From an uncultured Christensenella sp. (lineage in GTDB: Bacteria; Bacillota; Clostridia; Christensenellales; UBA1242), in contig CASDOR010000027.1 in NCBI GenBank assembly GCA_949282135.1, positions 24,608-88,607 on the forward strand: a stretch of 64,000 bases of DNA. The letters run 5' to 3'. How positions within the stretch are numbered: the first letter of the stretch is position 1; each line of letters begins with the position of its first letter. A program made the position numbers and the translations under genes. The notes beneath the pieces are model-generated. The model was not told the DNA's origin and ran no database searches. It was given only the letters and a program-made list of their open reading frames with translations. Shown here in pieces: positions 10,868-57,561 of this stretch.

Positions 10868-10915
10868 TAAAATACCGGCAAATTGATTGATTAATTAATA
10901 AAAATATAATATAAT

Positions 10916-10946
10916 AAAGAGGTCGAATTGGACTTCTTTATTTTTT
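10916..10946 (+). terminator. Rho-independent terminator after the carboxypeptidase gene
   Basis: Stem AAAGAGGTC / GGACTTCTTT (one G-T pair) followed by ATTTTTT. Confidence 0.55.
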
Positions 10947-10981
10947 GAAGTTTTAAGTTCTCATGTAAAAGGGAAAAGTGT

Positions 10982-11653: not shown

Positions 11654-11668
11654 TAAGGTGGTGGTTAC

Positions 11669-13349: not shown

Positions 13350-13373
13350 GTTAATAATGGTCTTTGTGGCTCG

Positions 13374-13387
13374 GTACTATGCAAACT
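13374..13387 (+). repeat. Copy of 14-nt motif GTACTATGCAAACT
   Basis: Identical to the three copies at 46452-46596. It lies in the gap between convergent scpB and the PBP gene. Confidence 0.8.
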
Positions 13388-13396
13388 TTTAAGCCA

Positions 13397-13415
13397 GCTT
13401 TTTAGTATAAAAAGC
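13397..13415. terminator. Bidirectional hairpin between convergent scpB and PBP genes
   Basis: GCTTTTTA-GTA-TAAAAAGC forms a perfect 8-bp stem flanked by A/T runs. Confidence 0.45.
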
Positions 13416-13424
13416 ACATGTTTT

Positions 13425-15659: not shown

Positions 15660-15750
15660 ATATATATTATTTATATATTTAAAGATTTTTATTATAGAGT
15701 AGTAAATTTTTGTTGAAATTTGTTAATCTTTTTTATATAATATTACCGCT

Positions 15751-17070: not shown

Positions 17071-17075
17071 CACAA

Positions 17076-19676: not shown

Positions 19677-19690
19677 GGAGGCAAAGAAGA

Positions 19691-21652: not shown

Positions 21653-21657
21653 GTCAC

Positions 21658-22590: not shown

Positions 22591-23803
22591 TAGCAGAATT
22601 TTAAAAGCAGAAGAAGAATTAAATGAGGATTTTAAGCGAGCAGAGGAAGTTGCTCTAAAAAATACAAATAAAATTTTAAATGCGTTTAGAAACAATAGAA
22701 TCTCAGCAAATCACTTTTATGGGTCGACAGGATATGGGTTTGATGATTTGGGAAGAGAGAAACTAATGAAGGTGTTTGCAGATAGTTTTAGTGCTGAAGA
22801 GGCAATAGTGTCTCAAGCTATTTCATGCGGCACAGAGGCTTTGACTACTGTTTTGTATGGCTTACTAAGACCTGGCGATGTTATGCTCGCGATAACCGGG
22901 AAGCCATATGATACACTAGACCAAACAATTTTTGGACTTGATAAAGAGGATAACGGAAGCTTAAAAGATTTTGGAGTTATTTATAAACAAGTAGAATTAA
23001 AAAATGGGGATTTTGATGAAGAAAAGATTTTAGAAGCTGTTAAAAGTAATCCTAAAATGATTTACATACAAAGGTCTTGTGGCTATTTAACTAGAAGGGC
23101 GGTAAGAATAAATAGGCTAGAAAATATTATTAAAAAAATCAGACAAGTTAATAAAACTAGTATAATCATGGTCGATAATTGCTATTGTGAGTTTGTCGAG
23201 GACAGAGAACCAACAGAAGTCGGAGCAGACGTGACTGCAGGCTCATTAATTAAAAATCCAGGAGGAGGACTAGTCTCTAATGGCGGATACATTGCTGGAA
23301 AGAAAAAATATATTGACCTCATAGCAGGTAGATTTACTTCGCCTTCCATTAAAACAGAGGTAGGTTCTTTTGAAGGTGGATATAGGCTTATGTATCAGGG
23401 ACTTTTCATGTCTCCTCACACTGTTTTGCAGGCAAAGAAAGGTTCAATGTTAATAGGTAAGGTGATGAGTAATTTAGGCTATAAACTCGTTGACAATTCA
23501 TTTAAACTTGCTGATATTGTGCGTTCAGTTTACTTTGAGGATAGAGATGATTTAATTAGCTTTTGTGGCTCAATCCAACACATGTCGCCGGTTGATAGTT
23601 ATGTGACACCTATTCCAAGTCCTATGGCAGGGTATAATAATGATATTATAATGGCAGCAGGTTGTTTTGTGCAGGGAAGTACTATAGAATTAAGTTGTGA
23701 TAGTCCTCTTAAAAAGCCTTACATATTGTATATTCAAGGTGGGCTCACATATGAACATGTTAAACTTGCCCTTAACGATTATCTTTTAAATAGAAAAGAT
23801 TAA
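22580..23803 (+). CDS. PLP-dependent aluminium-resistance / Met-gamma-lyase-like family protein (YnbB-like)
   Basis: 407 aa. The N-terminal pattern (..NTNKILNAFRNNRISANHFYGSTGYGFDDLGREKL..) and the position after miaA match the YnbB-type family found in Bacillota. Confidence 0.65.
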   Translation: MEIDSRILKAEEELNEDFKRAEEVALKNTNKILNAFRNNRISANHFYGSTGYGFDDLGREKLMKVFADSFSAEEAIVSQAISCGTEALTTVLYGLLRPGDVMLAITGKPYDTLDQTIFGLDKEDNGSLKDFGVIYKQVELKNGDFDEEKILEAVKSNPKMIYIQRSCGYLTRRAVRINRLENIIKKIRQVNKTSIIMVDNCYCEFVEDREPTEVGADVTAGSLIKNPGGGLVSNGGYIAGKKKYIDLIAGRFTSPSIKTEVGSFEGGYRLMYQGLFMSPHTVLQAKKGSMLIGKVMSNLGYKLVDNSFKLADIVRSVYFEDRDDLISFCGSIQHMSPVDSYVTPIPSPMAGYNNDIIMAAGCFVQGSTIELSCDSPLKKPYILYIQGGLTYEHVKLALNDYLLNRKD

Positions 23804-43104: not shown

Positions 43105-44157
43105 TTATTCATCTCTTAGTTTTATTACATTTGCCACATTTCTACGTGCATCTTCTGAGATTGCAGCATAGTGTTTTTTTGTTGTGTTGACATCTTTATG
43201 TCCTAGTACGTCAGCCACAATATAAATGTCTTTAGTTTCTCTATATAAATTTGTACCATAAGTACTGCGTAATTTGTGGGGAGTAATATGTTTTAATGGT
43301 ACACATGCTTCACTATATTTTTTAACTAATTTTTCTACAGCTCTAACAGAAATTCTTTTATTTTGAATGGACAAAAATAAAGCCTTTTCATTTTTATCGA
43401 CATTTTCATTATTTAGTCTTTCCTCTAAGTAGTCTCTTAGGGCAGAGGCTACTTCGTCAGAAAAATATAATACAACCTGACTTCCACCTTTTCTTGTAAT
43501 CTTAAAACCATTTACTTCAAAGTCAAGGTCTTCAATATTAAGACCAACACATTCGCTAACACGAATTCCAGTGCCTAGCAATAGTGTAAGTAATGCGACA
43601 TCTCTTTTTTTTGTAATTTCATTATAAGACTTTTGTCTCTTTGAAAAATTTTGAGGGCTTTCTGCTTCATTAATAAGCTTTACAATTTCATCAACTTCAA
43701 GTCTTATAATTTCTTTTTCTCTAATCTTTGGTGTATCAATTTTTGCTGAGACATTAGAGGCAATTTTATCTTTCTTATAAAAATAGTTAAGTAAGCATCT
43801 TATTGAAGAGAGTTTTCTAGCCTTTGCTGAAGCGGCATTAGATAATATTTTTTTACTGTCCTTGCTATAAGAAGATAAATAGTTTAAGTAATATTCAATA
43901 TGAGAAGATGAAATTTTAGACAAATCATCATAATCTAACTCTTCTACATTTTTATCTTTAAACTCAAAAATCTCATTTATTAAAAACTCAAAAAAACTTT
44001 TTATGTCATGCAAATACTCTAGTTGTGTTAGAGTAGTGGTTTTATTTTCAATTCCAACAATAAAGTCCGAGCAAAAAGAGGGAAGTGTTGTTAGAATTTC
44101 ACCAATTTTAACTTTATTTTTAAAATCTCTTTCTTTGAAATAATTATTTTCATTCAT
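43105..44157 (-). CDS. Tyrosine site-specific recombinase (Xer-like, 350 aa)
   Basis: It has an N-terminal SAM-like core-binding domain and a complete catalytic set: R (GTGIRVSE), K (ITRKGG), HxxR (HKLRST), H (LGHKDV), Y (KKHYA). It lies outside the prophage repeats and immediately upstream of lexA. Confidence 0.85.
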   Translation of the reverse strand: MNENNYFKERDFKNKVKIGEILTTLPSFCSDFIVGIENKTTTLTQLEYLHDIKSFFEFLINEIFEFKDKNVEELDYDDLSKISSSHIEYYLNYLSSYSKDSKKILSNAASAKARKLSSIRCLLNYFYKKDKIASNVSAKIDTPKIREKEIIRLEVDEIVKLINEAESPQNFSKRQKSYNEITKKRDVALLTLLLGTGIRVSECVGLNIEDLDFEVNGFKITRKGGSQVVLYFSDEVASALRDYLEERLNNENVDKNEKALFLSIQNKRISVRAVEKLVKKYSEACVPLKHITPHKLRSTYGTNLYRETKDIYIVADVLGHKDVNTTKKHYAAISEDARRNVANVIKLRDE

Positions 44158-45549: not shown

Positions 45550-46446
45550 ATGAATGAGGAATTAATTAGAGATTTTGCTTTGAGAAAAGATAAGTCAAAA
45601 GTGCAGGAGTTTTATAATATTGCACTTAATATTTTGACGTCTGCATTAGATGAGCTTAATAATAAAAGTGAGAATGGTGTTATTAAGCTGTCTGAAGAAT
45701 CGACAAGAATTTTCCCAATGGGAGATTATACTAACGATACGTTCATAGATCAAACTGGTGAATTAGAAATTGTAGTTGCAACAAATGATGCACAAATTAT
45801 TTTAAACACTACCAATTATTCAAATGAGATTAAAAATAAAAAAAACAAGAAAAACACTGAAATATCACAAAGAGGGACAATTGATATAATAGTTTATAAA
45901 TTACTCGAAATATTAGTTTCATACTTTAGCGAAGATACGACATTGTTTTTGACCAACGATGGCATAAAAATTCTTTGTCTTAAAGAGTATGGATTTAAAA
46001 TGCTAATTAGATTTGCAACATATAGTGTTGATGATGAAAATGCAACCTTATTTTTTTGGGAGCCTGTAGCAAAGGTTCAAAATCCAGTAAACTTATTTGT
46101 TTATAATGAGCAGATGGAAAATAAAGACAAAGAAACTAATGGAAATTATAAAAGATTAGTTAGAATTTATAAAAATATAAGAAAAACCATTTTGCTTAAC
46201 AAGTGGTCAATGAGTAGTGATCTTAATAAGTATTTTGTTGAACTTATAATATATAATATTCCAAGTAATTTAATGTTAGGGAATGACATAGTAAAAATTT
46301 TCTATAAGTCCTACAACTATCTTGTAAATTGCAATATTTTAAGTTTTGCTTCCTTTGATAATAGACATATAAATACGTTTAGTTTAGCTAAAATAACATA
46401 CTATAAAATTAACAATTATATAAGATTGCTTAAAAAATTAGTTTAG
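45550..46446 (+). CDS. Pol-beta-fold nucleotidyltransferase-like protein (CD-NTase/OAS-like layout, acidic triad degenerate)
   Basis: 298 aa. The G[S/D]-x9-13-[DE]h[DE]h layout is present as MGDYTNDTFIDQTGELEIVV. A downstream helical segment (NGNYKRLVRIYKNIRK) is typical of OAS/CD-NTase-like proteins. No clear third Asp and no effector gene nearby. Confidence 0.3.
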   Translation: MNEELIRDFALRKDKSKVQEFYNIALNILTSALDELNNKSENGVIKLSEESTRIFPMGDYTNDTFIDQTGELEIVVATNDAQIILNTTNYSNEIKNKKNKKNTEISQRGTIDIIVYKLLEILVSYFSEDTTLFLTNDGIKILCLKEYGFKMLIRFATYSVDDENATLFFWEPVAKVQNPVNLFVYNEQMENKDKETNGNYKRLVRIYKNIRKTILLNKWSMSSDLNKYFVELIIYNIPSNLMLGNDIVKIFYKSYNYLVNCNILSFASFDNRHINTFSLAKITYYKINNYIRLLKKLV

Positions 46447-46451
46447 AGTAG

Positions 46452-46596
46452 GTACTATGCAAACTTATTTATAACAATCTAAGTAAGTACTATGCAAACT
46501 TTTTATTTATAAAAATAAAAATTATATATCTATTATGACTCAAAAATAATTTTTGCAAGATTTGTTTAAAAACTTAAATCAAGTACTATGCAAACT
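46452..46596 (+). repeat. Three direct copies of GTACTATGCAAACT
   Basis: Identical 14-mers at 46452-46465, 46487-46500 and 46583-46596, all in the same orientation, within the ORF-free region left of the prophage. Confidence 0.9.
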
Positions 46597-46965: not shown

Positions 46966-46995
46966 CTATTCGTAAAACCTGTATTTTACGAATAG
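46966..46995. other. attL / dif-like core: perfect 12-6-12 inverted repeat CTATTCGTAAAA-CCTGTA-TTTTACGAATAG
   Basis: Read directly from the sequence. The right arm plus 4 nt of spacer plus TT (46980-46997) is repeated exactly at 52177-52194. Confidence 0.7.
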
Positions 46996-47000
46996 TTGTT

Positions 47001-47156
47001 CTAATAAGACTCAATAAAATTTTCTACTATTCTTCTTAGTACCTCGCTCCTCCCTTCTTCTTTATTCTTGCATATTTCGTCTAATTTTTTTATTGTTTTT
47101 TGTTTAAGTCTTATTGTTACAACTGCTTTTGGTGGTATTATTGATTTTGTTTTCAT
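47001..47156 (-). CDS. Ribbon-helix-helix (CopG/Arc/MetJ-type) DNA-binding protein, 51 aa (below ORF-track cutoff)
   Basis: Manual translation: MKTKSIIPPKAVVTIRLKQKTIKKLDEICKNKEEGRSEVLRRIVENFIESY. It reads as a beta-strand (VVTIRL), helix, G, helix. SD ggggag, own consensus promoter. The stop lies 4 nt inside the left direct repeat boundary. Confidence 0.6.
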   Translation of the reverse strand: MKTKSIIPPKAVVTIRLKQKTIKKLDEICKNKEEGRSEVLRRIVENFIESY

Positions 47157-47185
47157 TTTTCTCCCCTTTTTTGTATACGTTTATA

Positions 47186-47213
47186 ATTATATTTTATTTT
47201 AATTCTTTGTCAA
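47186..47213 (-). promoter_or_regulatory. Consensus sigma-A promoter driving the RHH gene
   Basis: On the minus strand, TTGACA (47213-47208), a 16-nt spacer, then TATAAT (47191-47186), about 30 nt upstream of the RHH start. Confidence 0.6.
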
Positions 47214-47238
47214 CTACTTTTTTAATTTTTTTCACACC

Positions 47239-47280
47239 AAAAAAAATACCCACTTGCTGACGGGCAAATTATCGCAAGTG
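47239..47280 (-). terminator. Hairpin plus T-run separating the Rep gene from the RHH transcription unit
   Basis: On the minus strand, CACTTGC-16 nt-GCAAGTG is followed by GGTATTTTTTTT. Confidence 0.45.
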
Positions 47281-47353
47281 CGGTATACCTAGCGAATAAA
47301 GCTTTAGCGACTGAGCGGAGCAGAAACTAACGTACAGCTGTATGCTCTACCCT

Positions 47354-47367
47354 ACTTTGCATAGTAC
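47354..47367 (-). repeat. Inverted, one-mismatch copy of the 14-nt motif (GTACTATGCAAAGT) inside the prophage non-coding region
   Basis: The plus strand reads ACTTTGCATAGTAC. The reverse complement differs from the host copies only at position 13. Confidence 0.8.
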
Positions 47368-47473
47368 TATAATTATATGCATTACATAAGTAATTCTCTT
47401 ACCCAGCATTTCCTGACGGGCTTATGCCGGCTCGGGCGCCGCTCGATAATAAAAAAAAAGAATAGTATTTCTA

Positions 47474-48493
47474 CTACTCTTTTTCTAGATAACGTTTTAG
47501 TACCTTAATCTTATTTTCTTTGGTCCTTTCTTGTACTGCTCTGTATTCTTCTCTGTTTAGATCCGTCTTGCTTAAGATTATCTCTTCTATGCGTTTTTGA
47601 GCTTCTTTTCTTCTTTGTTTTATTTCTTCCATTGTTTCGTGGTTTTCGACGTCGTACAGCTTGTCAAAATACCTTGCCGGTCTTACAGCTAGAGCTTTTC
47701 CTCGTTTGTTTAGTATAATTTCGTCATACTTGTATATATTGTCTTTATTTTCTTCGTAATAATCTCTCGCTATACCTGGTCTACGTGACATTCGAACGAA
47801 CTCTGGCTCTATGCCTAATTCTTCATATATTTTTGCTCCTTGTCCTTTTTGTTTTTTCATGACATACCTTGCGACATACCCGGCGCTGTCCCATGTTACA
47901 CTGCCTATACGTATTATTCCTTTCCCCCATAATTTTTGTATGTAATCGCTCGTCCATTGCACTTCACCCTTGTGGCTTTTTTCTGCTAATGTTAGGTCCG
48001 GTATGTGTGTGTTAAAAAGTATTGCGTGGTAATGTGGTCTTCCGCGTTTGTCTCCGTACTCACCGCACGAATAATATCTTGTATGCATTTCATAGTGCCT
48101 AGTTTGGTTGGTGTTTAGGTTGTTCAAGAAGTCCTTTAGGTCCTTCGGTCTTAGAGTTTCGACTATTTCTTGCTTGACTACCTCTCCGGTTTCTGTGTCT
48201 ATGTCTTGGATTATATTATATGGTAAGTGGTTGTTATCGTATGTTAGAGTGACGAAATAGTTCTCCTGGTACTTTTCAGCTTCGAGCATGCACCTTGTTG
48301 CCCACATGCGTGCATGGTCCAGTCTACATCCAATACAATTTCCGCATTGGACTTCTTGTACTGGGTATAGTCTACCTTTTATTTTTGCCCATGCGTTGCG
48401 TATAACTTCATTGTATTTTAAGATTTTAAGGTCTTGTTTTCCGTTATCTTTTATGCCTAAATTTACAGCTTTGAGTGGATGGTAACAGCTCAT
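47474..48493 (-). CDS. Microvirus replication initiation protein (VP4 / gpA-like rolling-circle Rep)
   Basis: 339 aa with MSCYHPL.. N-terminus, CGNCIGCR zinc knuckle, motif 1 FVTLTY, HUH motif RPHYHAILF and Tyr motif AGYVARYVMKK. SD aaggagg. Confidence 0.85.
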   Translation of the reverse strand: MSCYHPLKAVNLGIKDNGKQDLKILKYNEVIRNAWAKIKGRLYPVQEVQCGNCIGCRLDHARMWATRCMLEAEKYQENYFVTLTYDNNHLPYNIIQDIDTETGEVVKQEIVETLRPKDLKDFLNNLNTNQTRHYEMHTRYYSCGEYGDKRGRPHYHAILFNTHIPDLTLAEKSHKGEVQWTSDYIQKLWGKGIIRIGSVTWDSAGYVARYVMKKQKGQGAKIYEELGIEPEFVRMSRRPGIARDYYEENKDNIYKYDEIILNKRGKALAVRPARYFDKLYDVENHETMEEIKQRRKEAQKRIEEIILSKTDLNREEYRAVQERTKENKIKVLKRYLEKE

Positions 48494-48524
48494 TTTTTAA
48501 CCTCCTTAAAACCTCTTTCAGAGG

Positions 48525-48560
48525 GTCGGCACAATTCCCTCTTGTTGTAATTGTGCCGAC
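48525..48560. other. Perfect 12-bp stem-loop between VP2 and VP4 genes
   Basis: GTCGGCACAATT-12 nt-AATTGTGCCGAC. A second small hairpin (CCTCT-ttc-AGAGG, 48512-48524) is adjacent. Confidence 0.6.
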
Positions 48561-48609
48561 TGACACAAAATGTCCTTTTTTTTGTACATTTTGCACAAAA
48601 AATTTTGTG

Positions 48610-49032
48610 TCATTTGCCAAACCCTATATTGTAGTTTTTTGTTCCTTTTCCGCCTGCTATTATTTCTATCACTCTAATTGCGTTTGAGGCAAATTTTCCG
48701 CTACTTCCAGCACTTGCGTTGCTGTTTGCTGCAGTTCCGCTTGCTGTTGCTCCTCCAGGAGTATATGCTCCCATTCCTCCAGTTGCTGTAAGTATAGGGT
48801 TAATACCTGCAGCTTTGAGGTCTGCTACTTCTCTTTGGTGTGCTGTATTACTTAATCTTTCTTGATATTTTCTATTTATTTCTGCTTGTTCTGCATTGAA
48901 TAATCTGTTGATTTCTGCCTGTTCTGCGTTGTATGCACGGTCTCTTGATGCGCTGCCCCATCCTAGTGCATCCCCTAGATCGTTCCAAAATCCTCCGTAG
49001 TTGTTGCTATTTCCTATTGCTGATGTTGCCAT
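48610..49032 (-). CDS. Microvirus minor capsid / DNA pilot protein (VP2-like)
   Basis: 140 aa, Gly/Ala/Asn-rich, with the [17 protein letters not shown] signature seen in gokushovirus-type VP2. It has an internal duplication NAEQAEINR x2. SD aggagg. It sits directly after VP1. Confidence 0.6.
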
Positions 49033-49044
49033 ATTGTCCTCCTA

Positions 49045-50742
49045 TTAGTGATGGTCTATAAGTCCTGGTATGCTTGTAACAGGCATTGGTCGAGTGCACT
49101 TATAAGAAAAATAAAAGTCAGCTATCCATTGGTCTTCCACGGTTGATTGTACTGCAAGTGTACGGTCTACGTTGGCGGTTGTTTCTTGTATCCACGTTGG
49201 TCCTAAGATTGGTAAGCTTGAGTAATTGTCACCATAGTGCCAGCTGTCTAGACTCTGCGCGTAAGTGCTTCTTAGTGCCCCGGTTATTTGGTTAGGCTTA
49301 TACCTATATTCAGCCCATGCTTCTTGGTAGCCGAATGCTTCATTGTCACTTGCGTTTCCTTGAGCATATATTTCCTTGTTAAGAATTGCCTGTTCGCCTA
49401 TGTTCGCTAGACTTGGGAAGTAGAAATCTTCTCTTTTTGTCCTGGAGAACATTTTGTTTATGCCTTGCTGGTAAGAGTGTAAGGTTCTTACAACTGCTAA
49501 GCCTAAGATTATTTCGTGTTCGGTGAACGATTTTGTGAATGCTATTTCTTGGTCGGTTGTGTATGAGAATGCTGCAGTATTACCTTGAGGTGTTGTTGTA
49601 TCAGTACTAGAGGTTTGTAAAACCTGGTAGTTATTGATAGGTATACGTTTGCCGCCTAGGTATTCCGGTCTTTGCTGTCTTGCGTCAGGACTCGTAATTC
49701 CAAAGTGTGCTTTTATGATTTCGATATATCTTGTACCGCCTCTTGCGTCTTTTTCTAGCATTCTTTGTAATGCAAAGCTCATACGTAATTGGTTGACAGT
49801 ACTTGCTGTTGCTTGACTTAGATCTGTAATTACACCGCTATATTCTTTTCTTTCGTCTAGTCCTAGCATATATTTTGTTCCTTCGTTACTTCCCATATTT
49901 ATTTTTTCTGCGTCACTATTTGCACCTTTTTTAACGTCTTGGCCATTTACACTATATAATCCTAGAGTGTTATTTACTGTATTACTATGTTGTCCTCCTA
50001 GGTATACTTTTGATCCTTCTGGATTGCTAAAATAATTAATTCCGATTGCATTTCCATTGCCTATTACTGGAGCAGTATCTCCTAGTGGCAATAGTACATC
50101 TGGTCCTTTTTGTGGTTCTGGTAGGGCGCTGGTAAAATAGTCGTGATATTTTGCGGCTTTGAATGGCATGCCTCCGCATTGTAAGTCTGTTACATAATCT
50201 GTACCATTATTACCGGTTGTTGCACTGTCTCCAAGTGATAGAGCTGCTGGGTCTTGTAAGTTCTGGTCCCTAAACCAATCGTTAATGGTTAGAGTATATG
50301 CGCGTGGAAATAATGCGCTTACAGATATGCCACTTACTCCGGTTGGTATGCCCATATGGTCCATTATTGTCCCTTTTTGCCAGCCTCCACTAGGTGCTGT
50401 TATTTGTGGTATTTCGTATTCTGTCTCTTCTTCCCATGCTGAGGTTGTATTTTCGCCCATGAAGTTCTTCCAATGCTCCCATACAAGACGATTTGGCACA
50501 GCAAAAAAGTATATATCAAGGTATGCTTGGTCCATTACTGGGTGTATTGGTGTTGAGCCTCTGAGAAGTGTTCCAACGTTGATTTTTATTGTGTCTCCTG
50601 GTAATACTTCGTCTACTAGAATTGGTATAATTTCTCCGGTATTCATTGATGTGAGTTGCTTATGTGAGCGGTCAAACGTGCTTCTTGGTATGTCAATATT
50701 TGTTTGATTAATTGCAAATCTATTAGTTGCGTTGATGTTCAT
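49045..50742 (-). CDS. Microvirus major capsid protein (VP1 / F-like)
   Basis: 565 aa. The N-terminal block (IPRSTFDRSHKQLTSMNTGEIIPILVDEVLPGDT) is the hallmark VP1 start, and the size is typical. SD ggaggt. Confidence 0.85.
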   Translation of the reverse strand: MNINATNRFAINQTNIDIPRSTFDRSHKQLTSMNTGEIIPILVDEVLPGDTIKINVGTLLRGSTPIHPVMDQAYLDIYFFAVPNRLVWEHWKNFMGENTTSAWEEETEYEIPQITAPSGGWQKGTIMDHMGIPTGVSGISVSALFPRAYTLTINDWFRDQNLQDPAALSLGDSATTGNNGTDYVTDLQCGGMPFKAAKYHDYFTSALPEPQKGPDVLLPLGDTAPVIGNGNAIGINYFSNPEGSKVYLGGQHSNTVNNTLGLYSVNGQDVKKGANSDAEKINMGSNEGTKYMLGLDERKEYSGVITDLSQATASTVNQLRMSFALQRMLEKDARGGTRYIEIIKAHFGITSPDARQQRPEYLGGKRIPINNYQVLQTSSTDTTTPQGNTAAFSYTTDQEIAFTKSFTEHEIILGLAVVRTLHSYQQGINKMFSRTKREDFYFPSLANIGEQAILNKEIYAQGNASDNEAFGYQEAWAEYRYKPNQITGALRSTYAQSLDSWHYGDNYSSLPILGPTWIQETTANVDRTLAVQSTVEDQWIADFYFSYKCTRPMPVTSIPGLIDHH

Positions 50743-51241
50743 TTGTTGTTGTACCTCCGCTATTAGTTGTTTGCGTTGTAGTTGTAGTTACTGTTTCTTT
50801 GGTTTCTTCTTTTAGCTTTTTGCCTGTTGCTTTTTCGTATACTGCTGCATAAGTTCCATTTACTATACTTTCGACGTAATTTTGTACTGAGTAGTCTAGA
50901 GCTTTGCGGACTTCGAGTGGTTCTTGTGCAAATAGGTTTTCTCCCTTAATCCTTAGATTCTCCCACTCTGCTACAGTGCGTGGTAATTGTGTTAAGTCTA
51001 GGTAACTACCATTTCGTTTGTTGAGTAGTTCCGTCTCACCAGCTGCTACTCTCTTGAGTAAGTTTTCAATTTTAGTTTCTTCGAGTGGTGCTTGTGTTCT
51101 GTCATAGATATTTTTTGTTTTTTCAGTTTTTACGAGCACTTTGACACCTTTTTTTATTTGCATTTCATAGACCGGGATTTCTTTTTCTCCGCTTGGTGTT
51201 GGTGCGTTGGTGTAATAGTTATAATTTTTTCTAAATTCCAT
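50723..51241 (-). CDS. Microvirus internal scaffolding protein (VP3-like)
   Basis: 172 aa. YLDLTQLPRTVAEWENLRIKGENLFAQEPLEVRKAL resembles the conserved VP3 C-terminal region. It overlaps the VP1 start by 20 nt. Confidence 0.55.
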   Translation of the reverse strand: MEFRKNYNYYTNAPTPSGEKEIPVYEMQIKKGVKVLVKTEKTKNIYDRTQAPLEETKIENLLKRVAAGETELLNKRNGSYLDLTQLPRTVAEWENLRIKGENLFAQEPLEVRKALDYSVQNYVESIVNGTYAAVYEKATGKKLKEETKETVTTTTTQTTNSGGTTTNEHQRN

Positions 51242-51243
51242 AA

Positions 51244-51495
51244 TTACACCTCTTCTTTCAATTCTGATAGATTTGTGATAAATCTTACTTGTGGTACAAT
51301 TTCCCCGGTTTCGTCATTATAACTACCTACGCAATATAGTTGTTTGTCTTTGTAGTTTGTTTTAACTTCGTTATCTCCTGGATTATTTATCATATTTTTT
51401 ACGCTTCTGATTGCACTTCCGTCATTGACTCCGGCAAATGGTGTTGTCATTGCTCCTACTATAGTATCTTTGATTGTATATAATTTCATATTCAT
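51244..51495 (-). CDS. Hypothetical phage protein (83 aa)
   Basis: Strong SD (aaggag). It starts MNMKLYTIKDTIVGAMTTPFAGVNDGSAIRSVKNM.., which resembles a small non-structural protein family I recall from gut microviruses (not verifiable here). Confidence 0.55.
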   Translation of the reverse strand: MNMKLYTIKDTIVGAMTTPFAGVNDGSAIRSVKNMINNPGDNEVKTNYKDKQLYCVGSYNDETGEIVPQVRFITNLSELKEEV

Positions 51496-51591
51496 TTCTT
51501 ATTTCTCCTTTTTATTTTGTTTTTGTGATATTTCCGTTTTTGTCTATATATCCTATTATTTCGCCATCTTCTGTAACTGTGTCTATTATTC

Positions 51592-51717
51592 TCATAGTCT
51601 TGTACCTCCGCGTGTGTTCATTGGCGTGATATTTATTTTTTTTGTACTACTTGCTGTGTTTCGGAATATTTTTTTATCTAGGTTCTGATTTTTTATCTTC
51701 TTTCGTTTGTTTGCCAT
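51592..51717 (-). CDS. Highly basic 41-aa peptide (candidate J/ORF8-like DNA-packaging protein)
   Basis: Manual translation: MANKRKKIKNQNLDKKIFRNTASSTKKINITPMNTRGGTRL (12 K/R, 1 acidic). SD aaggag lies 7 nt upstream. Its stop overlaps (ATGA) the start of a further 27-aa ORF (51512-51595) that has SD ggaggt. Confidence 0.45.
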   Translation of the reverse strand: MANKRKKIKNQNLDKKIFRNTASSTKKINITPMNTRGGTRL

Positions 51718-51835
51718 CTTTTTCTCCTTTTAATTCTTTTTTTATTTTTTGTAATTTTTCTTGGTCTCTCTCTTCCCAGCTTAAGCTTTTTTGATACAAG
51801 TATTCTAGTATTGCCTGTTCTCTTGTCATTTTCAT
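51674..51835 (-). CDS. Hypothetical 53-aa charged protein
   Basis: Manual translation: MKMTREQAILEYLYQKSLSWEERDQEKLQKIKKELKGEKDGKQTKEDKKSEPR. It starts 4 nt after the stop of the 84-aa ORF and overlaps the basic-peptide ORF in another frame. Confidence 0.35.
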   Translation of the reverse strand: MKMTREQAILEYLYQKSLSWEERDQEKLQKIKKELKGEKDGKQTKEDKKSEPR

Positions 51836-51838
51836 TTT

Positions 51839-52093
51839 TTACAATTCCTTTTTTATATAATTTTTGATTGTGTTTTGTAATGTCTTATTATTAATTTCTA
51901 AGTTTTGTATTTTGCTTAGATTTTGTATTTGCGTTATACAATTTTTTAGTTGTTCGTTAATAATTTTATCTATCTTTTCAATTTCTTCACTGTTTGTTAC
52001 TTTCTTTTTTTTCTTGAATAATGCTATTAGTGAGAATGTCATAGATAATACTATTACTACTATTTGTAATATGTATAAGACTGTTTCTAACAT
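51839..52093 (-). CDS. Small membrane protein (N-terminal TM helix + coiled coil), first gene of the phage operon
   Basis: 84 aa. TVLYILQIVVIVLSMTFSLIALF is followed by KKKKK and a helical repeat-like tail. SD aaaggaaa. Confidence 0.55.
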   Translation of the reverse strand: MLETVLYILQIVVIVLSMTFSLIALFKKKKKVTNSEEIEKIDKIINEQLKNCITQIQNLSKIQNLEINNKTLQNTIKNYIKKEL

Positions 52094-52162
52094 TTTTGTA
52101 TTTCCTTTATATTATATTTGTATACACTTTTTGACTTTTAAAAAAGAGAATGTATTCTCTTA

Positions 52163-52192
52163 GTATTCGGGAAGATTGTATTTTACGAATAG
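52163..52192. other. attR: half-degenerate copy of the dif-like core (GTATTCGGGAAG-ATTGTA-TTTTACGAATAG)
   Basis: The right arm is identical to attL. The left arm matches the attL left arm at 8 of 12 positions. The spacer differs in its first two nucleotides. Confidence 0.65.
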
Positions 52193-52284
52193 TTTATGAC
52201 AATAAAGAAAAAAGAGAAAACAGCTAAAAATTAAGTGTAAGGGAGAATTTTTGTGCTCTTCCCTCTTTTTTATACGTTTATTAA

Positions 52285-52956
52285 TTAATATATTTCTAGC
52301 AAAAAAGCATAATTTTTTAGTTCATCTCTACTTTCTTTCCATGTTGGACAAACTTTTTCTAACTCCATATAAAATCTTGGCGAGTGATTGAGTTCTTTTA
52401 AATGAGTGAGTTCATGAAAAATTACAAAATCAATTAGCTTTGGTTTTACCATTGCGAGTCTCCAATTTAATTTTATTACTCCAAATCTATCACAACTTCC
52501 CCATTTTGCCCTGTAACTACCTATAATAATTTTACTAACATCATATTTGTAATTCTGTATAATGTCCTTAAATCTTTTTATAATTACCCTATCTGCTATT
52601 TCTTTTACTATTTTTTTTATATAAAAGGTCGTCTTTCCTGATTCGTAATATTTTTTAGGTAGCAAAAAATATTCTTCAGTAAAAGATGGTTTACTGACTT
52701 TATTTGTTGGAACAATGACATATTCTTTTCCAAATAGTAAAATATTTTCTAGTTTCATTACACTAGAAAATTTACTTGATAAAACACGCGCTTTGTTAAT
52801 TTTCTTTTCAAGTAATTTTTCTTTTGATTTTAAGATACTTTCTACCTTATCAAGAGCTAAGCCATAAGGACAATAGATGGTTATGTCCCCTTCCCTACTT
52901 ATTGTGATTTTAACACTTTTTCTTTTTTCTCTTATAATACTTGCTTTCTCAATCAT
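52285..52956 (-). CDS. DUF45/YgjP-like zinc metallopeptidase (M48-related)
   Basis: 223 aa. The C-terminal motif (DFVIFHELTHLKELNHSPRFY) has HExxH plus a downstream H, as in the YgjP/DUF45 family. Confidence 0.7.
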   Translation of the reverse strand: MIEKASIIREKRKSVKITISREGDITIYCPYGLALDKVESILKSKEKLLEKKINKARVLSSKFSSVMKLENILLFGKEYVIVPTNKVSKPSFTEEYFLLPKKYYESGKTTFYIKKIVKEIADRVIIKRFKDIIQNYKYDVSKIIIGSYRAKWGSCDRFGVIKLNWRLAMVKPKLIDFVIFHELTHLKELNHSPRFYMELEKVCPTWKESRDELKNYAFLLEIY

Positions 52957-53135
52957 AATTTAATACCTTTCTATATTTTATCATATTTTAAATAATTAAA
53001 AAAATCATTTAAAGTCAAATTTTGTTGACTAAAAAAAAACTATTTTGTAATATATAATTATATCTTAGATAATGTTTTTTATACAAGTTTTAAATGGTTG
53101 GATGACATTTATTTAGTAAATTAAGAAGGTGAAAA

Positions 53136-54821
53136 ATGCTTGAGTTTTCTGATAATAAAGCAACTAGAGGTAGTATCTCTCAAATTATAATTACTGCTTT
53201 GAGTTCTGGAGACAAATATGGTTATGAGATTTGTAAGGAAATTGAGAGATTGTCGAATGGTGTTTTAGTTTTAAAACAACCTAGTTTATATAGTAGCTTA
53301 CGTCGTATGGAGGAGCAAAATCTTATTTCTTCGTACTGGCAAGATAGCGACATTGGAGGAAAGAGACATTATTATTCTTTAACTGAAAAAGGTAGAGAGA
53401 TTTATGAAGAGAATAAAGATTCGCTTGACATGAATGAACTTATAAACAACTTACCTCTCAGTGAATTAGATTTGGAGGATTTTCAGCCAAATTCCAATAA
53501 TTTTGAAAGTAATAAGTCTACAGCAGTTGCAAGTCAGGAAAACTTATTTAATCTAGTTAACAAAACAAATGAGATAAAATTAATTAAAGAAGATGATAAT
53601 GATAACGAGAACAAATCGTTTGTTCAATTTGATTTGTTTGACCAAAAAGTTAATTTTATAAAGGACAATTCAAAAAATACAGACAAAGTGAACTTGTATT
53701 CAAATAAATATGAAAACCTAGACAAGCACGAAGAAGAAATTGAGCCTGATAAAACTGCAGAATTAGATCAAGAGATTAAGTTGGATCAAGAGATTAGACA
53801 AAAAGACCATTTAGATAATCAAGTTATTGAGCCTATTACAAGGAGTTCTCTATTTGGTAATCATGATAATAGTTCTATTCAAGATGATAGATCAGACATT
53901 ATTAGTGAAGGACCGCCTTCAGATAGTCAAAAAATTGAAGACGAAGCAAATAATCACAATTATGAAGTTGATGATGAGAATGCTACTACTATAAATGAAG
54001 TTGAAATAGTTGAGGATGAAGTAAAGTATGATCCTGAGAAAATAAAATGGAATAATATTTCGACATATGACCAAGATGATGAGGATTTAAAACAAAAATC
54101 AAATGATTATAAAAGTATAATTGGTCAATTATACAGTGATTCCAAGCTCCCTGACCCATATGAAGAAAATAAATTTTATACTTTTAAGGAGATCTTCCCT
54201 ACTGCACAGGTTAAAGAACAACATAAAGATAAAATTAAAACTACTGGCATAATAGACGCATTTGTTAACGAAAAGAATAATGTTAACTCCAATTTGGACA
54301 ATTTGACAACTTTAAGCGAGCAATTTAATTCGCAAGGTTTAAAAATAAAAATACATAATAATGATAATAATAAAAATAATTTAAGATTATATTCCGATAT
54401 AAATAAGTTAAATATGACCACATCATGGTACGTATCAATTATTATGATGCTTGAAATTGTGCTTTCATATGTGATATTAGATAACTACGATTATGTAATA
54501 AGCAAACAATCTTTAATGTTTTTTCTTGGGGGTTCTATTGCTATCAGTTTATTAATTGTCGCAACATTAGAAAATTTATTTGATAGATTTAAGCTGATTA
54601 TAATAAAAAGACAGTTTAAAAGAGATTTTGTTAAAGCATTTTTGTTATTTATATTTATTTGCGTTTTAACGTTTGCTATTTGTTTGATATCAGGGATGCA
54701 GAGTTTGGGACAAATTGAATATTTAAGTTACTGGTTGGTGCCTATTTTAGTTGCTTCAAACATAATAACCTATTGTATAATATTTCATTCCCTGCTAAAG
54801 TCTAAACATTATAATAACTAA
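53136..54821 (+). CDS. Membrane-anchored PadR-family transcriptional regulator
   Basis: 561 aa with an N-terminal PadR wHTH (GDKYGYEICKEIERLSNGVLVLKQPSLYSSLRRMEEQNLISSYW..GGKRHYYSLTEKG), a ~330-aa acidic/Asn-rich linker and about 4 C-terminal TM helices. Confidence 0.7.
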   Translation: MLEFSDNKATRGSISQIIITALSSGDKYGYEICKEIERLSNGVLVLKQPSLYSSLRRMEEQNLISSYWQDSDIGGKRHYYSLTEKGREIYEENKDSLDMNELINNLPLSELDLEDFQPNSNNFESNKSTAVASQENLFNLVNKTNEIKLIKEDDNDNENKSFVQFDLFDQKVNFIKDNSKNTDKVNLYSNKYENLDKHEEEIEPDKTAELDQEIKLDQEIRQKDHLDNQVIEPITRSSLFGNHDNSSIQDDRSDIISEGPPSDSQKIEDEANNHNYEVDDENATTINEVEIVEDEVKYDPEKIKWNNISTYDQDDEDLKQKSNDYKSIIGQLYSDSKLPDPYEENKFYTFKEIFPTAQVKEQHKDKIKTTGIIDAFVNEKNNVNSNLDNLTTLSEQFNSQGLKIKIHNNDNNKNNLRLYSDINKLNMTTSWYVSIIMMLEIVLSYVILDNYDYVISKQSLMFFLGGSIAISLLIVATLENLFDRFKLIIIKRQFKRDFVKAFLLFIFICVLTFAICLISGMQSLGQIEYLSYWLVPILVASNIITYCIIFHSLLKSKHYNN

Positions 54822-54871
54822 ATTATTTTACTATTAAAAACAAATACTATATAAAAAATGGAGTTGGAGTT

Positions 54872-55813
54872 TTGAGTAGAGTTGTATTAAAAGTAAAAAA
54901 TTTAACAAAAAAATTTAATGATAGAGTGGCTGTAAATAACCTCACCCTAGAAATTTCTGAGGGTGAGATTTTTGGTTTCTTAGGTCCAAATGGTGCTGGC
55001 AAAACAACCGCAATTAGGATGATAACTGGTCTAGCAAAAATGGATAGTGGCGAAGTTTACATTTGTGGTAAATCCATAAAAACTGAATTTGAAAAAGCTA
55101 TTGTAAATGTAGGCGGTATAATTGAAAATCCTGAAATGTACAAAAATTTCTCAGGTTTAGATAACCTAAAATATTATGCAAGTCTTTATAATGACATATC
55201 AAAAGAAAGAATAATGAACATAGTTGAGCTTGTTGAATTGAAAGATAGAATAAAAGACAAAGTAAAGACATATTCTCTTGGAATGAAACAAAGATTAGGT
55301 ATTGCTCAAGCTTTACTACATTATCCGAAATTATTAATTTTAGATGAGCCGACAAACGGACTAGATCCTAAGGGGATTATAGATTTAAGGCGTTTTCTTA
55401 AAAAAATATCACAAAAAGATAAAATGGCGATTTTGATTAGCAGTCATAACCTCAGTGAGATGGAATTGCTTTGTGATAAAATAGGAATTATAAATCATGG
55501 TAAACTTGAAGATATAAGAACTCTTGACCAACTAAAAGAATACAATAATAATGGACAAGTCGTACTAAAGGTTAACTTCCCTAACTATGCAGGTAAAATT
55601 ATAGCAAAAAAATATAATATTAGTAATATATCCATATATAAAAACACTCTAGTTGTTCCGTTAGATAACAAGTTAATTCCTGAATTAAGTGTGTTATTAA
55701 TTTCAAATGGAATAGCAATTTACTCTATTTCTGGTCAAACAAAAACTCTAGAGGATGTATTCCTTGATACAGTAAATAGACGGGCACTTCCTGCCCCAAA
55801 AGGAGCTAAATAA
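54872..55813 (+). CDS. ABC transporter ATP-binding protein
   Basis: 313 aa from a TTG start with Walker A GPNGAGKTT, signature YSLGMKQRL and Walker B LLILDEPTNGLD. Confidence 0.9.
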   Translation: MSRVVLKVKNLTKKFNDRVAVNNLTLEISEGEIFGFLGPNGAGKTTAIRMITGLAKMDSGEVYICGKSIKTEFEKAIVNVGGIIENPEMYKNFSGLDNLKYYASLYNDISKERIMNIVELVELKDRIKDKVKTYSLGMKQRLGIAQALLHYPKLLILDEPTNGLDPKGIIDLRRFLKKISQKDKMAILISSHNLSEMELLCDKIGIINHGKLEDIRTLDQLKEYNNNGQVVLKVNFPNYAGKIIAKKYNISNISIYKNTLVVPLDNKLIPELSVLLISNGIAIYSISGQTKTLEDVFLDTVNRRALPAPKGAK

Positions 55814-57561
55814 TGTTTAAAACATCAAAATTATTTAAGGGCGAACTTAAAAAAGTTTTTTTTGGTCCAAGCATGATATTAATGGCTGGAATATTTTTAC
55901 TTGCTCTAGCATTGTTCCCTTCCCTATTTTCTCCTGTAGAAAAAAAATCTATTGCAACTGAAATAAATTTACCTACTACAAGTGTTACTCAGGCTAATGA
56001 CTCATTTACATCATACAAAAATGTTTATGAAGAAAATCTATATTTATTACAGGGTCAAATAGTAAATTTAATAGACTACAATGAAAATTTTAAAAACAAC
56101 TTATTAAGTTTGGCGGACGAATTATACGATTTGAGACTAGCATTTGCCAGTGCAGCAAACACAGCTAATATTAATGGTGAAAATGGGTGTTTTTCGTTAC
56201 ATATGAAGCTAATCTCAAAAGTAGATGAGATTAAAACTCTTTATAACTCATACGTAAACAACTACTTTGTACCACTAGTTTTAGTTGATGAAGATTTGGA
56301 TTTTCAGATAAACATGGAACTTGATTTATTAAACAATATTTTGACTGAAAATACAGATATAAGTGGCTCAATTGACTTTTATAATAGGCTAAATTTAACG
56401 CTCGATGAATATGGCAGCATAAGCAAAATTAGAAATTTATTGAATAAAATCAACTCATTGACATATTCAAGTACAAATTTAAATGAAATATTAAGTAAAT
56501 ACTCCACCTTAAAAGATAGTTATCTAGAAGAGACTTTATCTCAAATTAATAAATTAGTAAGTTTGAGTGCAAGTGATCCGAACGAAGACGCAAGTAGAGA
56601 AAATATAACTAATTTTGAAAATTTAGCAAAACAATACTTGTATACACTTGATTATTTGGGGACCGCAATAGAAAATTCGACACTGATAGAAATAGCAGAA
56701 CATTACAAAGATAGCTCACTTTCACGTTTTATAGGATTTGAAAATTTTAACTCATATAAGCTATCAGAAGAGCTCGTCAAGGTAGATTATTTTTTGACAA
56801 ATAATCTAATAGAAGACGAAGTGTCTAACGTGTTTATGTTTAATACAAACTCATCTTCGTCTACTAATGCTTTTGATTATATGTATTTTTCTATGGAGGT
56901 AATTAGCATATTTATTGTTGCGTTCACGGTTATTATTGGGGCTGGTATGATTTCTAAAGAATATAGTGACGGTACAATAAAACTTCTTGCAATTAGACCT
57001 TATAAAAGAAGTAAGATAATTTTTGCAAAGATATGTGCAACCTTATTTATTTCTTTCTTGTTTGTACTTATTGCTCTGATAATGTCTACCATAATTGGTA
57101 TAATTATTTACGGTATCTCATTCCCTACTATGCTAGTTGTGTTCAATGCAAGTGTCGCTTTTACCTTACCAGTATGGGTTGTATTTTTAATTTACCTCTT
57201 GTGTTTAATGATAAAAATTTCAATTTATGCATTACTTGCAATTGCTATATCTACAATTTTTAAATCATATGTTGTATCTGTTTGTGTAAGTAGTGGATTA
57301 TACCTATTAAATATTATTTTAACATTTATATCAAATGGTGCTAGCTGGTTAAAATTTAATCCTTTTGCTTCTCTAGATTTATTCAAATATTTTGGTGGAA
57401 GTTTTATCTCAACTTCAAACTCAAGTAATATAACAAGTTTGTTCTATTCCCCAGTTTTTGCGGATACAAACATATGGGTTTCAGTTTCAGTTATACTTAT
57501 ATTTACTGTTCTCTTAAATACCCTTATCTTCACAATCTTTAAAAAACGAGATATAACATAA
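55813..57561 (+). CDS. ABC-2 type permease with large extracytoplasmic domain
   Basis: 582 aa. Its start overlaps the ATPase stop (ATGA). One N-terminal TM, a ~330-aa soluble region, then about 5 TM helices of ABC-2 style. Confidence 0.65.
   Translation: MFKTSKLFKGELKKVFFGPSMILMAGIFLLALALFPSLFSPVEKKSIATEINLPTTSVTQANDSFTSYKNVYEENLYLLQGQIVNLIDYNENFKNNLLSLADELYDLRLAFASAANTANINGENGCFSLHMKLISKVDEIKTLYNSYVNNYFVPLVLVDEDLDFQINMELDLLNNILTENTDISGSIDFYNRLNLTLDEYGSISKIRNLLNKINSLTYSSTNLNEILSKYSTLKDSYLEETLSQINKLVSLSASDPNEDASRENITNFENLAKQYLYTLDYLGTAIENSTLIEIAEHYKDSSLSRFIGFENFNSYKLSEELVKVDYFLTNNLIEDEVSNVFMFNTNSSSSTNAFDYMYFSMEVISIFIVAFTVIIGAGMISKEYSDGTIKLLAIRPYKRSKIIFAKICATLFISFLFVLIALIMSTIIGIIIYGISFPTMLVVFNASVAFTLPVWVVFLIYLLCLMIKISIYALLAIAISTIFKSYVVSVCVSSGLYLLNIILTFISNGASWLKFNPFASLDLFKYFGGSFISTSNSSNITSLFYSPVFADTNIWVSVSVILIFTVLLNTLIFTIFKKRDIT

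Follow-up and report, generated by a model that had tools for sequence, protein, structure and literature searches.

An integrase-less microvirus prophage at a dif-like palindrome near a XerS-like recombinase gene in an uncultured Clostridium

Genes and features of the element

The stretch of DNA analysed here, referred to throughout as the window, comprises 64,000 nucleotides (64 kb) of contig CASDOR010000027.1 (assembly GCA_949282135.1), and the element in question is a microvirus integrated within it at a dif-like palindrome. Positions 46998-52176 were found to hold an intact microvirus gene set, namely VP1, VP2, VP3, the replication protein VP4 (Rep), VP5, a J-like peptide and an RHH regulator, with every gene of the block on the minus strand. 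The GC content is 0.369 within the block as against 0.296 in each flank, which bears out the compositional shift claimed in an earlier reading made from the letters alone (the sequence-only reading). The genes and control elements of the block are the following:

47001..47156, minus strand: RHH (CopG-type) DNA-binding protein, 51 aa (Pfam RHH_1, 9.2e-7; PHROG repressor families)
47186..47213, minus strand: candidate sigma-70-type promoter TTGACA-16-TATAAT, 12/12 consensus, directly 5' of the RHH gene (consensus match only)
47247..47266, minus strand: terminator-like hairpin with T-run, between the Rep operon and the RHH transcription unit
47474..48493, minus strand: VP4, rolling-circle replication initiator (HUH endonuclease), 339 aa (PF23343, 9.4e-19; phrog_942, 1.4e-107)
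48610..49032, minus strand: VP2 DNA pilot protein, 140 aa (PHROG 'pilot protein for DNA ejection' families, down to 1e-25)
49045..50742, minus strand: VP1 major capsid protein, 565 aa (Pfam Phage_F, 4e-171; phrog_514, 1.6e-212)
50723..51241, minus strand: VP3 internal scaffolding protein, 172 aa (Chlamy_scaf, 8.5e-21)
51244..51495, minus strand: VP5 (ORF5) non-structural protein, 83 aa (PF20577 (Phage_ORF5), 2.4e-17; phrog_1670)
51592..51717, minus strand: basic Lys/Arg-rich peptide, 41 aa (phrog_10695, 6e-4)
51674..51835, minus strand: open reading frame (ORF), 53 aa, called on all source contigs, no family match in Pfam or PHROGs
51839..52093, minus strand: 84-aa protein, hydrophobic near its N-terminus and with a charged tail of repetitive sequence (weak phrog_1383 match, 9e-4)

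Profile searches identified the 565-, 339-, 140- and 172-aa proteins as VP1, Rep, VP2 and VP3, as the sequence-only reading had proposed, and the Rep motifs CGNCIGCR, FVTLTY, PHYHAILF and AGYVARYVMKK are all present in the 339-aa protein. That reading had counted ten minus-strand ORFs. The ORFs are as it described them with the exception of the tenth (48444-48620, TTG start, overlapping Rep), which is doubtful, the gene callers on the source contigs giving nine genes in the block. When these nine called ORFs and the doubtful one were compared with Pfam and PHROGs, no match to an integrase, transposase or recombinase was found, which upholds the further claim that the block encodes no integrase or transposase.

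Over its full length, VP1 shares 43.5% identity with the capsid proteins of Chlamydia phage 2 (Chp2) and Spiroplasma phage 4 (SpV4), and the element is therefore placed among the gokushovirus-like microviruses. The gene order VP5-VP3-VP1-VP2-VP4 is the one found in that group, and VP4, which is 36% identical to ORF4 of Chlamydia phage 2, carries the HUH and catalytic Tyr motifs of a gokushovirus-like Rep. Identity of VP1 rises to 56-62% with virome microviruses of mammal faeces (Sigmofec, bajarodmic and pig-faeces viruses). By one criterion for the putative Family 3 of Kirchberger et al. 2022, a capsid of Phage F/VP1 fold with at least 30% amino acid identity to family members, the phage in the window belongs there. 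The Pfam and PHROG scans of the block gave no match to other families, the phiX-type external scaffold (D) and spike (G) included.

The VP2 protein is short, and in integrated relatives it is likewise of 117-134 aa. The 41-aa peptide lies just upstream of the VP5 gene, a position at which relatives have ORFs of 38-52 aa annotated 'DNA binding protein', and from this placement it is probably a J/VP8-like DNA-binding packaging protein. The gene for the 84-aa protein opens the phage operon; its product might, speculatively, be a lysis or membrane protein. The RHH gene is the last gene before the left junction and, since it has its own consensus promoter and a terminator-like hairpin upstream, looks like a separate transcription unit. 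In integrated relatives this position is occupied by an RHH gene (locus L004) or by a Cro/CI-type HTH gene, HTH_3 (L005), and no match to a DNA-binding regulator was found among the small ORFs of five free virome relatives and the IMG/VR contig L042. From its family and position, the RHH protein is likely to be a regulator that keeps the lytic operon quiet, and in this small sample the regulator together with the phage attachment site (attP) would make up a small lysogeny module. In the 317-nt spacer between Rep and RHH no structured RNA was detected (no Rfam match; fold z-score -1.5).

The flanking repeat and the attachment sites

The 18-mer TGTATTTTACGAATAGTT occurs in the window as two exact copies, at 46980-46997 and 52177-52194, and at least two matches were obtained in none of 100 shuffled sequences. 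The perfect 18-bp direct repeat that the sequence-only reading had placed around the block is therefore present where it was reported and, within the window, is confined to the two junctions rather than dispersed. What that reading had missed is that the repeat is half of a palindrome, whose arm is likewise confined to the two junctions:

46966..46995, no strand assigned: attL, intact host dif-like site CTATTCGTAAAA-CCTGTA-TTTTACGAATAG, a 12-pair inverted repeat, read directly
52163..52192, no strand assigned: attR, hybrid phage-type site GTATTCGGGAAG-ATTGTA-TTTTACGAATAG, offset exactly 5197 bp from attL

attL is a perfect 30-bp palindrome with 12-bp inverted arms around a 6-bp centre, and the left 18-mer is its right half. 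In attR the right arm is perfect, the centre keeps TGTA (four of six bases) and the left arm is degenerate. The offset between the sites gives a unit length of 5197 bp, known here from the integrated copy, which fits the microvirus range of approximately 4.4-6.3 kb. A dyad of 12+6+12 has the geometry typical of tyrosine-recombinase core sites. The pairing of an intact host site with a degenerate, phage-derived copy marks elements that rely on the host's Xer recombination, and the element shows features of an integrative mobile element that exploits Xer (IMEX), having no integrase of its own and a dif mimic with intact and hybrid junctions. More than a simple target duplication, the 18-bp repeat is what a host dif-like palindrome and its phage mimic have in common, and its position beside a host Xer-type gene explains how a phage without an integrase could come to be integrated.

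Two further observations concern the DNA around these sites. A promoter-like element, TTGTCA-16-TACAAT, spans attR (52175-52202, minus strand) with its -35 in host DNA and its -10 in the att core, and it reads into the phage operon; the 10/12 match lies in AT-rich DNA and may be due to chance. The motif AGTACTATGCAAA is present in five copies in the window against 0.32 expected, at 46451-46463, 46486-46498, 46582-46594 and 13373-13385 on the plus strand and at 47356-47368 on the minus strand. Three of the copies lie in the host spacer beside the att site and one in the non-coding region between Rep and RHH; the motif also adjoins a half-site in L113, a phage-free relative of the locus, and it could bind a regulator or an accessory factor.

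Empty sites and independent assemblies

The window is contained in scaffold_463 (102.6 kb) of the ENA assembly ERZ16268139. A second assembly of the same study (ERZ16268262 scaffold_21; L112) matches the window at 96.5% identity over 21 kb and is phage-free, with the gene order YgjP-[one site]-NTase-serS-xer, where NTase denotes a nucleotidyltransferase gene. Here ...ACGTATCTATTCGTAAAACCTGTATTTTACGAATAGTTTATGACAAT... corresponds to window position 46997 joined to 52195 with a single copy of the repeat, L112 aligning to each junction over 31 nt, and its one site is identical to attL. The empty site that the sequence-only reading had suggested looking for is thus at hand. L113 and L121 are also empty; their Xer proteins are 87% and 64% identical to that of the window, and the core of the site is kept as the flanks diverge.

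Occupied copies of the locus were recovered as well. The Logan contig L002 (k=31) is identical to the window over 46968-53024, and L003, from another assembly, is 100% identical over 46967-52159, so that the prophage sequence is 100% identical in three assemblies. L011, from a further sample, carries a prophage of 85% identity inserted at this site of an L113-type host, and spans the left junction into a different flank. The contig ends of L002 and L003 at 46968 and 46967 were considered as a sign of circular molecules; this idea is taken up with the other points that weigh against the proposed route.

One alternative to integration is that the assembler joined a free microvirus to a bacterial contig sharing the 18-mer. 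The source is indeed a metagenome scaffold, and Kirchberger et al. warn of binning and assembly errors where microviruses appear in metagenome-assembled genomes (MAGs) (PMC9239249). Against this, the k=31 contig runs across attR into the YgjP-like host gene with 0 mismatches, the related prophage of L011 spans attL in another sample, the locus is also occupied in one NCBI and several ENA assemblies, and the insertion is base-exact relative to the empty-site genome. The exact join in L112 means that a chimeric assembly is effectively excluded, and we give it hardly any credence. The element is almost certainly a genuine, intact, integrated microvirus.

Related prophages and other occupants of such sites

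VP1 homologues of approximately 62% identity were found at the same serS-xer locus in one NCBI assembly (L004) and in ENA assemblies (L005 and L006). A single-protein scan of species-representative genomes gave nothing, and an alignment-based rescan was used instead; it returned 64 loci. The long contigs among these, with related prophages in many Clostridia, are from Lachnospiraceae, Oscillospiraceae, Peptostreptococcaceae and Clostridia MAGs, and two Clostridia isolates were hit, Oscillibacter sp. PC13, in which the prophage occupies approximately 141.4-146.7 kb of contig NZ_FOXE01000003.1 and the att palindrome and the repeat were confirmed, and Muriventricola aceti H5_61, for which there is a VP1 match only. 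Two microvirus-size contigs, L060 and L061, are binned into the Methanobacteriota MAG BH3, which is probably a binning artefact (cf. Kirchberger et al. 2022).

At least nine of the Clostridia prophage loci have a host-specific palindrome of the same design together with a degenerate copy. Palindromes of the form AAAA-N6-TTTT accompany prophages with VP1 identities of 49-62% in L004, L005, L048, L051 (where it is TAAA-N6-TTTA), L052, L053, L058 and L059; L085 and L104 show the same AAAA-N6-TTTT design, read from single flanking repeats, and L054 has the palindrome only. The pair of intact and hybrid junctions recurs in L004, L005, L048, L052, L053, L058 and L059, with the intact copy at the Rep end in most of the related Clostridia loci. 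The arm sequences differ from host to host, for example CTATGCGTAAAA/TTTTACGCATAG, CTTTGCGCAAAA/TTTTGCGCAAAG, CTCTTCGCAAAA/TTTTGCGAAGAG and ATTGAACAAAA/TTTTGTTCAAT, and the phage-side copy follows each host's own arm. A canonical XerCD-type dif, such as ATATATATTATGTAAA, flanks the relatives in L078 (Phascolarctobacterium faecium DSM 14760), L099 and L062, whose VP1 identities are 44-48%. As these relatives in Negativicutes and Proteobacteria lie at canonical dif, the phages appear to copy the Xer site type of their own host.

Such sites also accommodate more than one element. In L056 (CANQDP010000010.1, approximately 8265-19000) two related but non-identical prophages follow one another at a distance of 5173 bp, a tandem arrangement of the kind known from IMEX elements. 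In L122 (ENA ERZ27316754 k141_778751, approximately 5731-7560) the same site between the YgjP and NTase genes is occupied by a different element of about 1.5 kb, which encodes a 64-aa HTH_3 protein and ORFs of 84 and 91 aa, has no Rep, is unrelated to the microvirus and is enclosed by three dif-like copies, including one whose spacer measures 10 bp. This is possibly a second family of integrase-less elements using the YgjP|NTase site. Tandem prophages and an alternative occupant are typical of dif-targeting elements.

These comparisons bear on a different route of integration, in which the Rep protein, an HUH endonuclease, or RecA-mediated homology over 18 bp of chance identity inserted the phage. 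The phage does encode such a Rep and the 18-bp identity does exist. Against this, different phage lineages have different att sequences that each match the palindrome of their own host, an intact palindrome is always regenerated at one junction, the target is a 12+6+12 dyad of tyrosine-recombinase type, 18 bp is a poor substrate for RecA, and an unrelated mini-element without Rep sits in the same site in L122. Integration by Rep or RecA is therefore very improbable, and a host tyrosine recombinase acting on the palindrome probably integrated the phage.

The host recombinase and its linkage to the site

A candidate for this enzyme is encoded close to the element:

43105..44157, minus strand: host Xer-family tyrosine recombinase (XerS-like), 350 aa, 2.8 kb from the att site, beyond serS and the NTase gene

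The best NCBIfam model for the 350-aa protein is XerS (NF003462), matched over its full length at 2.8e-58, with XerA, XerC and XerD next. The catalytic residues R199, K223, H294, R297, H320 and Y330 are invariant in 12 homologues. The gene is borne by the host, since it has the same neighbours, lexA and serS, in the prophage-free loci L112, L113 and L121, and hundreds of homologues with 64-98% identity were found in 'Clostridia bacterium' assemblies. Within the 64-kb window there is no second tyrosine recombinase, and no canonical Firmicutes dif was found there with up to three mismatches allowed. A LexA control, based on the position of lexA next to xer, was dropped because GAAC-N4-GTTC is absent throughout the window.

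The relationship between the gene and the palindrome was then followed across genomes. In seven prophage loci a xer homologue lies 0.3-4.1 kb from the palindrome. A metagenomic set of 80 loci with xer homologues at 49-60% identity, 48 of them with at least 5 kb upstream of the gene, was searched for palindromes of the type CTATTCGYAAAA-N6-TTTTRCGAATAG, with at least 10 of the 12 arm pairs required. Such a palindrome was present within 6 kb upstream of the xer homologue in 24 of the 48 loci, and in about half of those it was within 1 kb. The whole metagenomic set contains 43 such palindromes in 923 kb, compared with three after shuffling. Across 30 sites the dyad is kept through two-sided changes at six of the 12 arm positions, with the centre varying freely. 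The linkage of gene and site also holds through rearrangement of the other flank. This linkage is directly observed; that integration depends on the neighbouring recombinase, and that the site functions as dif, we infer.

Is the site a dif?

The palindrome has the features by which dif was recognised in Legionella: it is about 30 bp long, AT-rich, palindromic and intergenic, is kept amid varying flanks and is targeted by integrase-less elements. It lies between convergent genes and is unique both in the window and in the 21-kb loci. A gene-wise fit was used to separate replication-linked from transcription-linked skew, and the replication-linked GC3 skew was +0.25 to the left of the site and -0.01 to its right, where 11.8 kb are available. 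Intergenic skew was +0.15 on the left and -0.03 on the right. The pattern is compatible with a dif at this point, though no more than that.

Gene order around the site was seen to vary. When L005 and L121 are compared with window positions 17076-23803 and 53136-57561, the flanking gene blocks are swapped: the sides of the xer-serS-site module on which mutS-mutL-miaA-MGL and PadR-ABC stand are exchanged from one genome to another. Such block swaps fit inversions about a terminus-proximal point.

Host genes in the window

The genes around the element are those of an uncultured, low-GC, walled Clostridium of a sporulation lineage. Those named in the sequence-only reading are:

5847-7103: SpoIVB peptidase
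7178-7927, plus strand: ORF with a Spo0A_C domain beside spoIVB (Spo0A_C, 9.8e-9; no NCBIfam Spo0A match)
9686-10867: S11 carboxypeptidase
13425-15659: class A penicillin-binding protein
52285-52956: YgjP-like protein (called 'YlbJ-like' in the earlier reading)

This host context stands for SpoIVB, the class A penicillin-binding protein, the S11 carboxypeptidase and, under its new name, the YgjP-like protein. The assignment of a Spo0A-like protein comes down to a Spo0A_C domain match, and the ORF at 7178-7927 could encode either a diverged Spo0A or just a regulator related to it. Immediately next to the att site, a 298-aa CD_NTase_C protein is encoded at 45550-46446 on the plus strand, and its place is kept in L112, L113, L121 and L122; it gives a weak match, 1.4e-10 and far under the cut-off, to an anti-phage nucleotidyltransferase model.

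Proposed route of integration

It is probable, taking the observations together, that an integrase-less microvirus was integrated by a host Xer-family recombinase at a dif-like palindrome. In the double-stranded replicative form, the attP mimic would lie in the non-coding DNA that separates the RHH gene from the gene opening the operon; one arm would be perfect and the other degenerate, with four of the six centre bases kept. A host Xer-family tyrosine recombinase would join attP to the 30-bp host palindrome; the likeliest enzyme is the 350-aa XerS-like protein, which would serve both of the identical arms by itself, as a single-recombinase system. The crossover would fall within the shared TGTA and right arm, and a crossover in that segment accounts for the intact host site at the Rep/RHH end (attL), the hybrid at the other end (attR) and the 18-bp repeat. 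Because a good arm and centre are present at both junctions, the same enzyme should also be able to excise the phage. The RHH protein, made from its own promoter behind the terminator, would hold the lytic operon quiet.

A number of findings weigh against this scheme or parts of it. No circular or excised form was found in a scan of IMG/VR or in exact look-ups of the VP1, RHH and 84-aa proteins, so the circular junction that the sequence-only reading had thought worth seeking was not recovered; the exact-protein look-ups returned solely integrated copies or contigs ending at the junctions, with no permuted contig. The IMG/VR scan with the att core gave 36 matches, one of them a microvirus, L042 (48% VP1 identity), which carries GTTTTCGTAAAA-TCTGTA-TTTTACGAATAG, has no terminal overlap and may be a free phage or a prophage. 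The contig ends at 46967/46968 in L002 and L003 were rejected as a sign of circles and attributed to strain heterogeneity, because L011 shows the flank of a second host strain diverging exactly at 46966. In six free virome relatives the dif-like site was not recognised, by a scan that may miss diverged mimics; either the att-site trait is not general to the clade or such mimics escaped the scan. Around the site, the change in skew is a collapse without a clean sign flip, measured on no more than 11.8 kb to its right. The count of dyad positions kept through two-sided changes is partly circular because the sites were chosen as palindromic. As regards the enzyme, the XerS score is 197.4 bits against a cut-off of 267, so the protein falls short of the curated model NF003462 and is termed XerS-like, not XerS. 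The label XerH-like was also considered and rejected, since a search of the PDB puts XerA and XerD above XerH. The strict search gave no palindrome at 24 of the 48 metagenomic xer loci. Finally, the view is limited to 64 kb, and a canonical XerC/XerD pair with its dif could lie elsewhere in the genome.

The missing circular form is one reason to consider that the prophage is a fixed, non-inducible remnant, domesticated or dead, a state compatible with the integration mechanism proposed above; the short VP2 of 140 aa could be read in the same way. Against it, none of the nine genes is interrupted, three assemblies give a sequence that is 100% identical, a close strain has no insertion, integrated relatives also have a short VP2, and the genome is of normal size for a microvirus. 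A remnant is thus unlikely.

The limited view, the sub-threshold XerS score and the xer loci with no palindrome nearby, by comparison, can be cited in favour of integration by another host recombinase, a canonical XerC/XerD pair or another tyrosine recombinase encoded elsewhere, the XerS-like gene being a bystander and the palindrome an ordinary att site. Kono et al. moreover predicted a canonical dif in 97 of 100 Firmicutes having XerCD (PMC3025954). Note, however, that the site is unlike canonical dif and none was found in the window, that gene and site are linked far more often than chance would give, a linkage that persists where the other flank is rearranged, and that the related microviruses of L078, L099 and L062 lie at canonical dif, so that these phages seem to track the Xer site of their host. 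A bystander role for the XerS-like gene is accordingly judged improbable, a shade more so than the remnant. That the neighbouring XerS-like enzyme is the integrating recombinase and the palindrome the chromosomal dif is the reading we favour, with some reserve.

Significance

For most gut microviruses the host is unknown, and we know of no microvirus that has been cultured on a walled bacterium of Gram-positive type. Base-exact att sites and an empty-site control, rather than binning, are what connects a large clade of faecal microviruses to Clostridia at this locus and its relatives. If the assignment is true, this gut microvirus clade without known hosts (56-62% VP1 identity) would consist of temperate or lytic phages of walled, spore-forming Clostridia, and isolates such as Oscillibacter sp. 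PC13 would be lysogens from which the first microvirus culture system of Gram-positive type could be built. With these att sites, experiments to resurrect phages in the manner of Kirchberger and Ochman could be designed, and isolate lysogens are at hand in Oscillibacter sp. PC13 and possibly Muriventricola aceti H5_61. A question raised is how a tailless 5-kb single-stranded DNA phage passes and lyses a thick wall.

The palindrome beside the XerS-like gene is, in addition, a candidate for the dif of a group whose dimer resolution has yet to be characterised, by the same logic as for XerL of Legionella. We put forward only tentatively, at somewhat less than even chances, that gut Clostridia have a new dimer-resolution module consisting of a single XerS-like protein and an adjoining, perfectly palindromic 30-bp dif of the form CTATTCGYAAAA-N6-TTTTRCGAATAG, and that the faecal microvirus clade infects Clostridia, with isolates as lysogens. 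If the dif reading is wrong, the element would be an ordinary further member of the known class of integrase-less microvirus prophages.

Comparison with known systems

That microviruses without an integrase can be lysogenic at dif has been known since 2011 (PMC3091885) and was proven in 2020 (PMC7062461). The suggestion of the sequence-only reading that a Bacillota lysogen would extend the host range of the family is pre-empted by Firmicutes prophages described in 2022 (PMC9239249) and by many public Clostridia genomes, isolates included. In that study, Kirchberger, Martinez and Ochman described isolates of Erysipelatoclostridium and Mammaliicoccus sciuri with complete microvirus prophages, presenting these as the first cases in Gram-positives; the prophages are given one sentence, and the text is without dif, Xer or integrase (PMC9239249). 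Those elements, like the one here, are complete microvirus prophages in Firmicutes of Gram-positive type, whereas the host classes differ. The new element of the present case is the non-canonical, single-recombinase-type dif-like target, the kind of prophage being already known. In the searchable literature nothing was found on a clostridial single-recombinase Xer system, which is not proof of absence, and no account turned up there of this type of site, of its association with a XerS-like gene or of Clostridia microviruses using it systematically.

For the Bacteroidetes proviruses, Krupovic and Forterre proposed in 2011 that the host dimer-resolution machinery is used (PMC3091885). BMV1-7/Alpavirinae share with the present prophage the absence of an integrase, dif-like imperfect flanking repeats and an empty site known from a provirus-free strain; they differ in belonging to another microvirus group and another host phylum, in using canonical XerC/D-type sites and in having a repeat of 13 bp as against 18 bp here. 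Kirchberger and Ochman then showed by knock-outs in 2020 that integration of an E. coli gokushovirus requires XerC, XerD and the phage dif motif (PMC7062461). The Enterogokushovirus prophages (EC6098) resemble the present one in having no integrase, an unchanged bacterial dif at one end and a variable phage motif at the other, an attP in a non-coding stretch and a host recombinase proposed or used, and VP1 of the window is approximately 45% identical to that of an enterobacterial relative (L074). Their target, however, is the canonical 28-bp XerC/XerD dif, in contrast to a perfect 30-bp palindrome whose arms have AAAA-N6-TTTT inner ends. In Escherichia the roles of XerC and XerD are experimental, whereas in the Clostridium a linked, single 350-aa XerS-like protein is put forward on sequence grounds. 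The RHH regulator of the window phage is a further difference.

Proximity of the site to the xer gene is given as the distinguishing trait of the single-recombinase systems XerS/difSL and XerH/difH (PMC5357621; PMC9765430). In XerS/difSL of streptococci and lactococci and XerH/difH of Helicobacter and Campylobacter, as here, a single recombinase of 350-362 aa has a linked site (PMC5357621), and the inner ends of the difSL and difH arms are A-tracts and T-tracts (TTTCCGAAAA / TTTTCTTGAAA; AGTTATGAAAA), again as here. difSL differs in being 31 bp long with an 11-bp centre and imperfect, unequal arms, as against 30 bp, a 6-bp centre and perfect 12-bp arms; gene and site are immediately adjacent in systems of the XerS/difSL type, whereas 2.8 kb with serS lie between them in the window. 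A parallel in reasoning is LME-1 with XerL/dif of Legionella (PMC9765430). There a single recombinase serves the site, xerL and dif are more than 400 kb apart, necessity and sufficiency of the recombinase were shown experimentally, and the element is not a microvirus. In both cases, however, the att site of a mobile element points to a non-canonical dif with long uninterrupted inverted repeats, and the palindrome described here matches the Legionella dif, which lies near the terminus, in its length of about 30 bp, its low GC content, its palindromic and intergenic character and its varying flanks.

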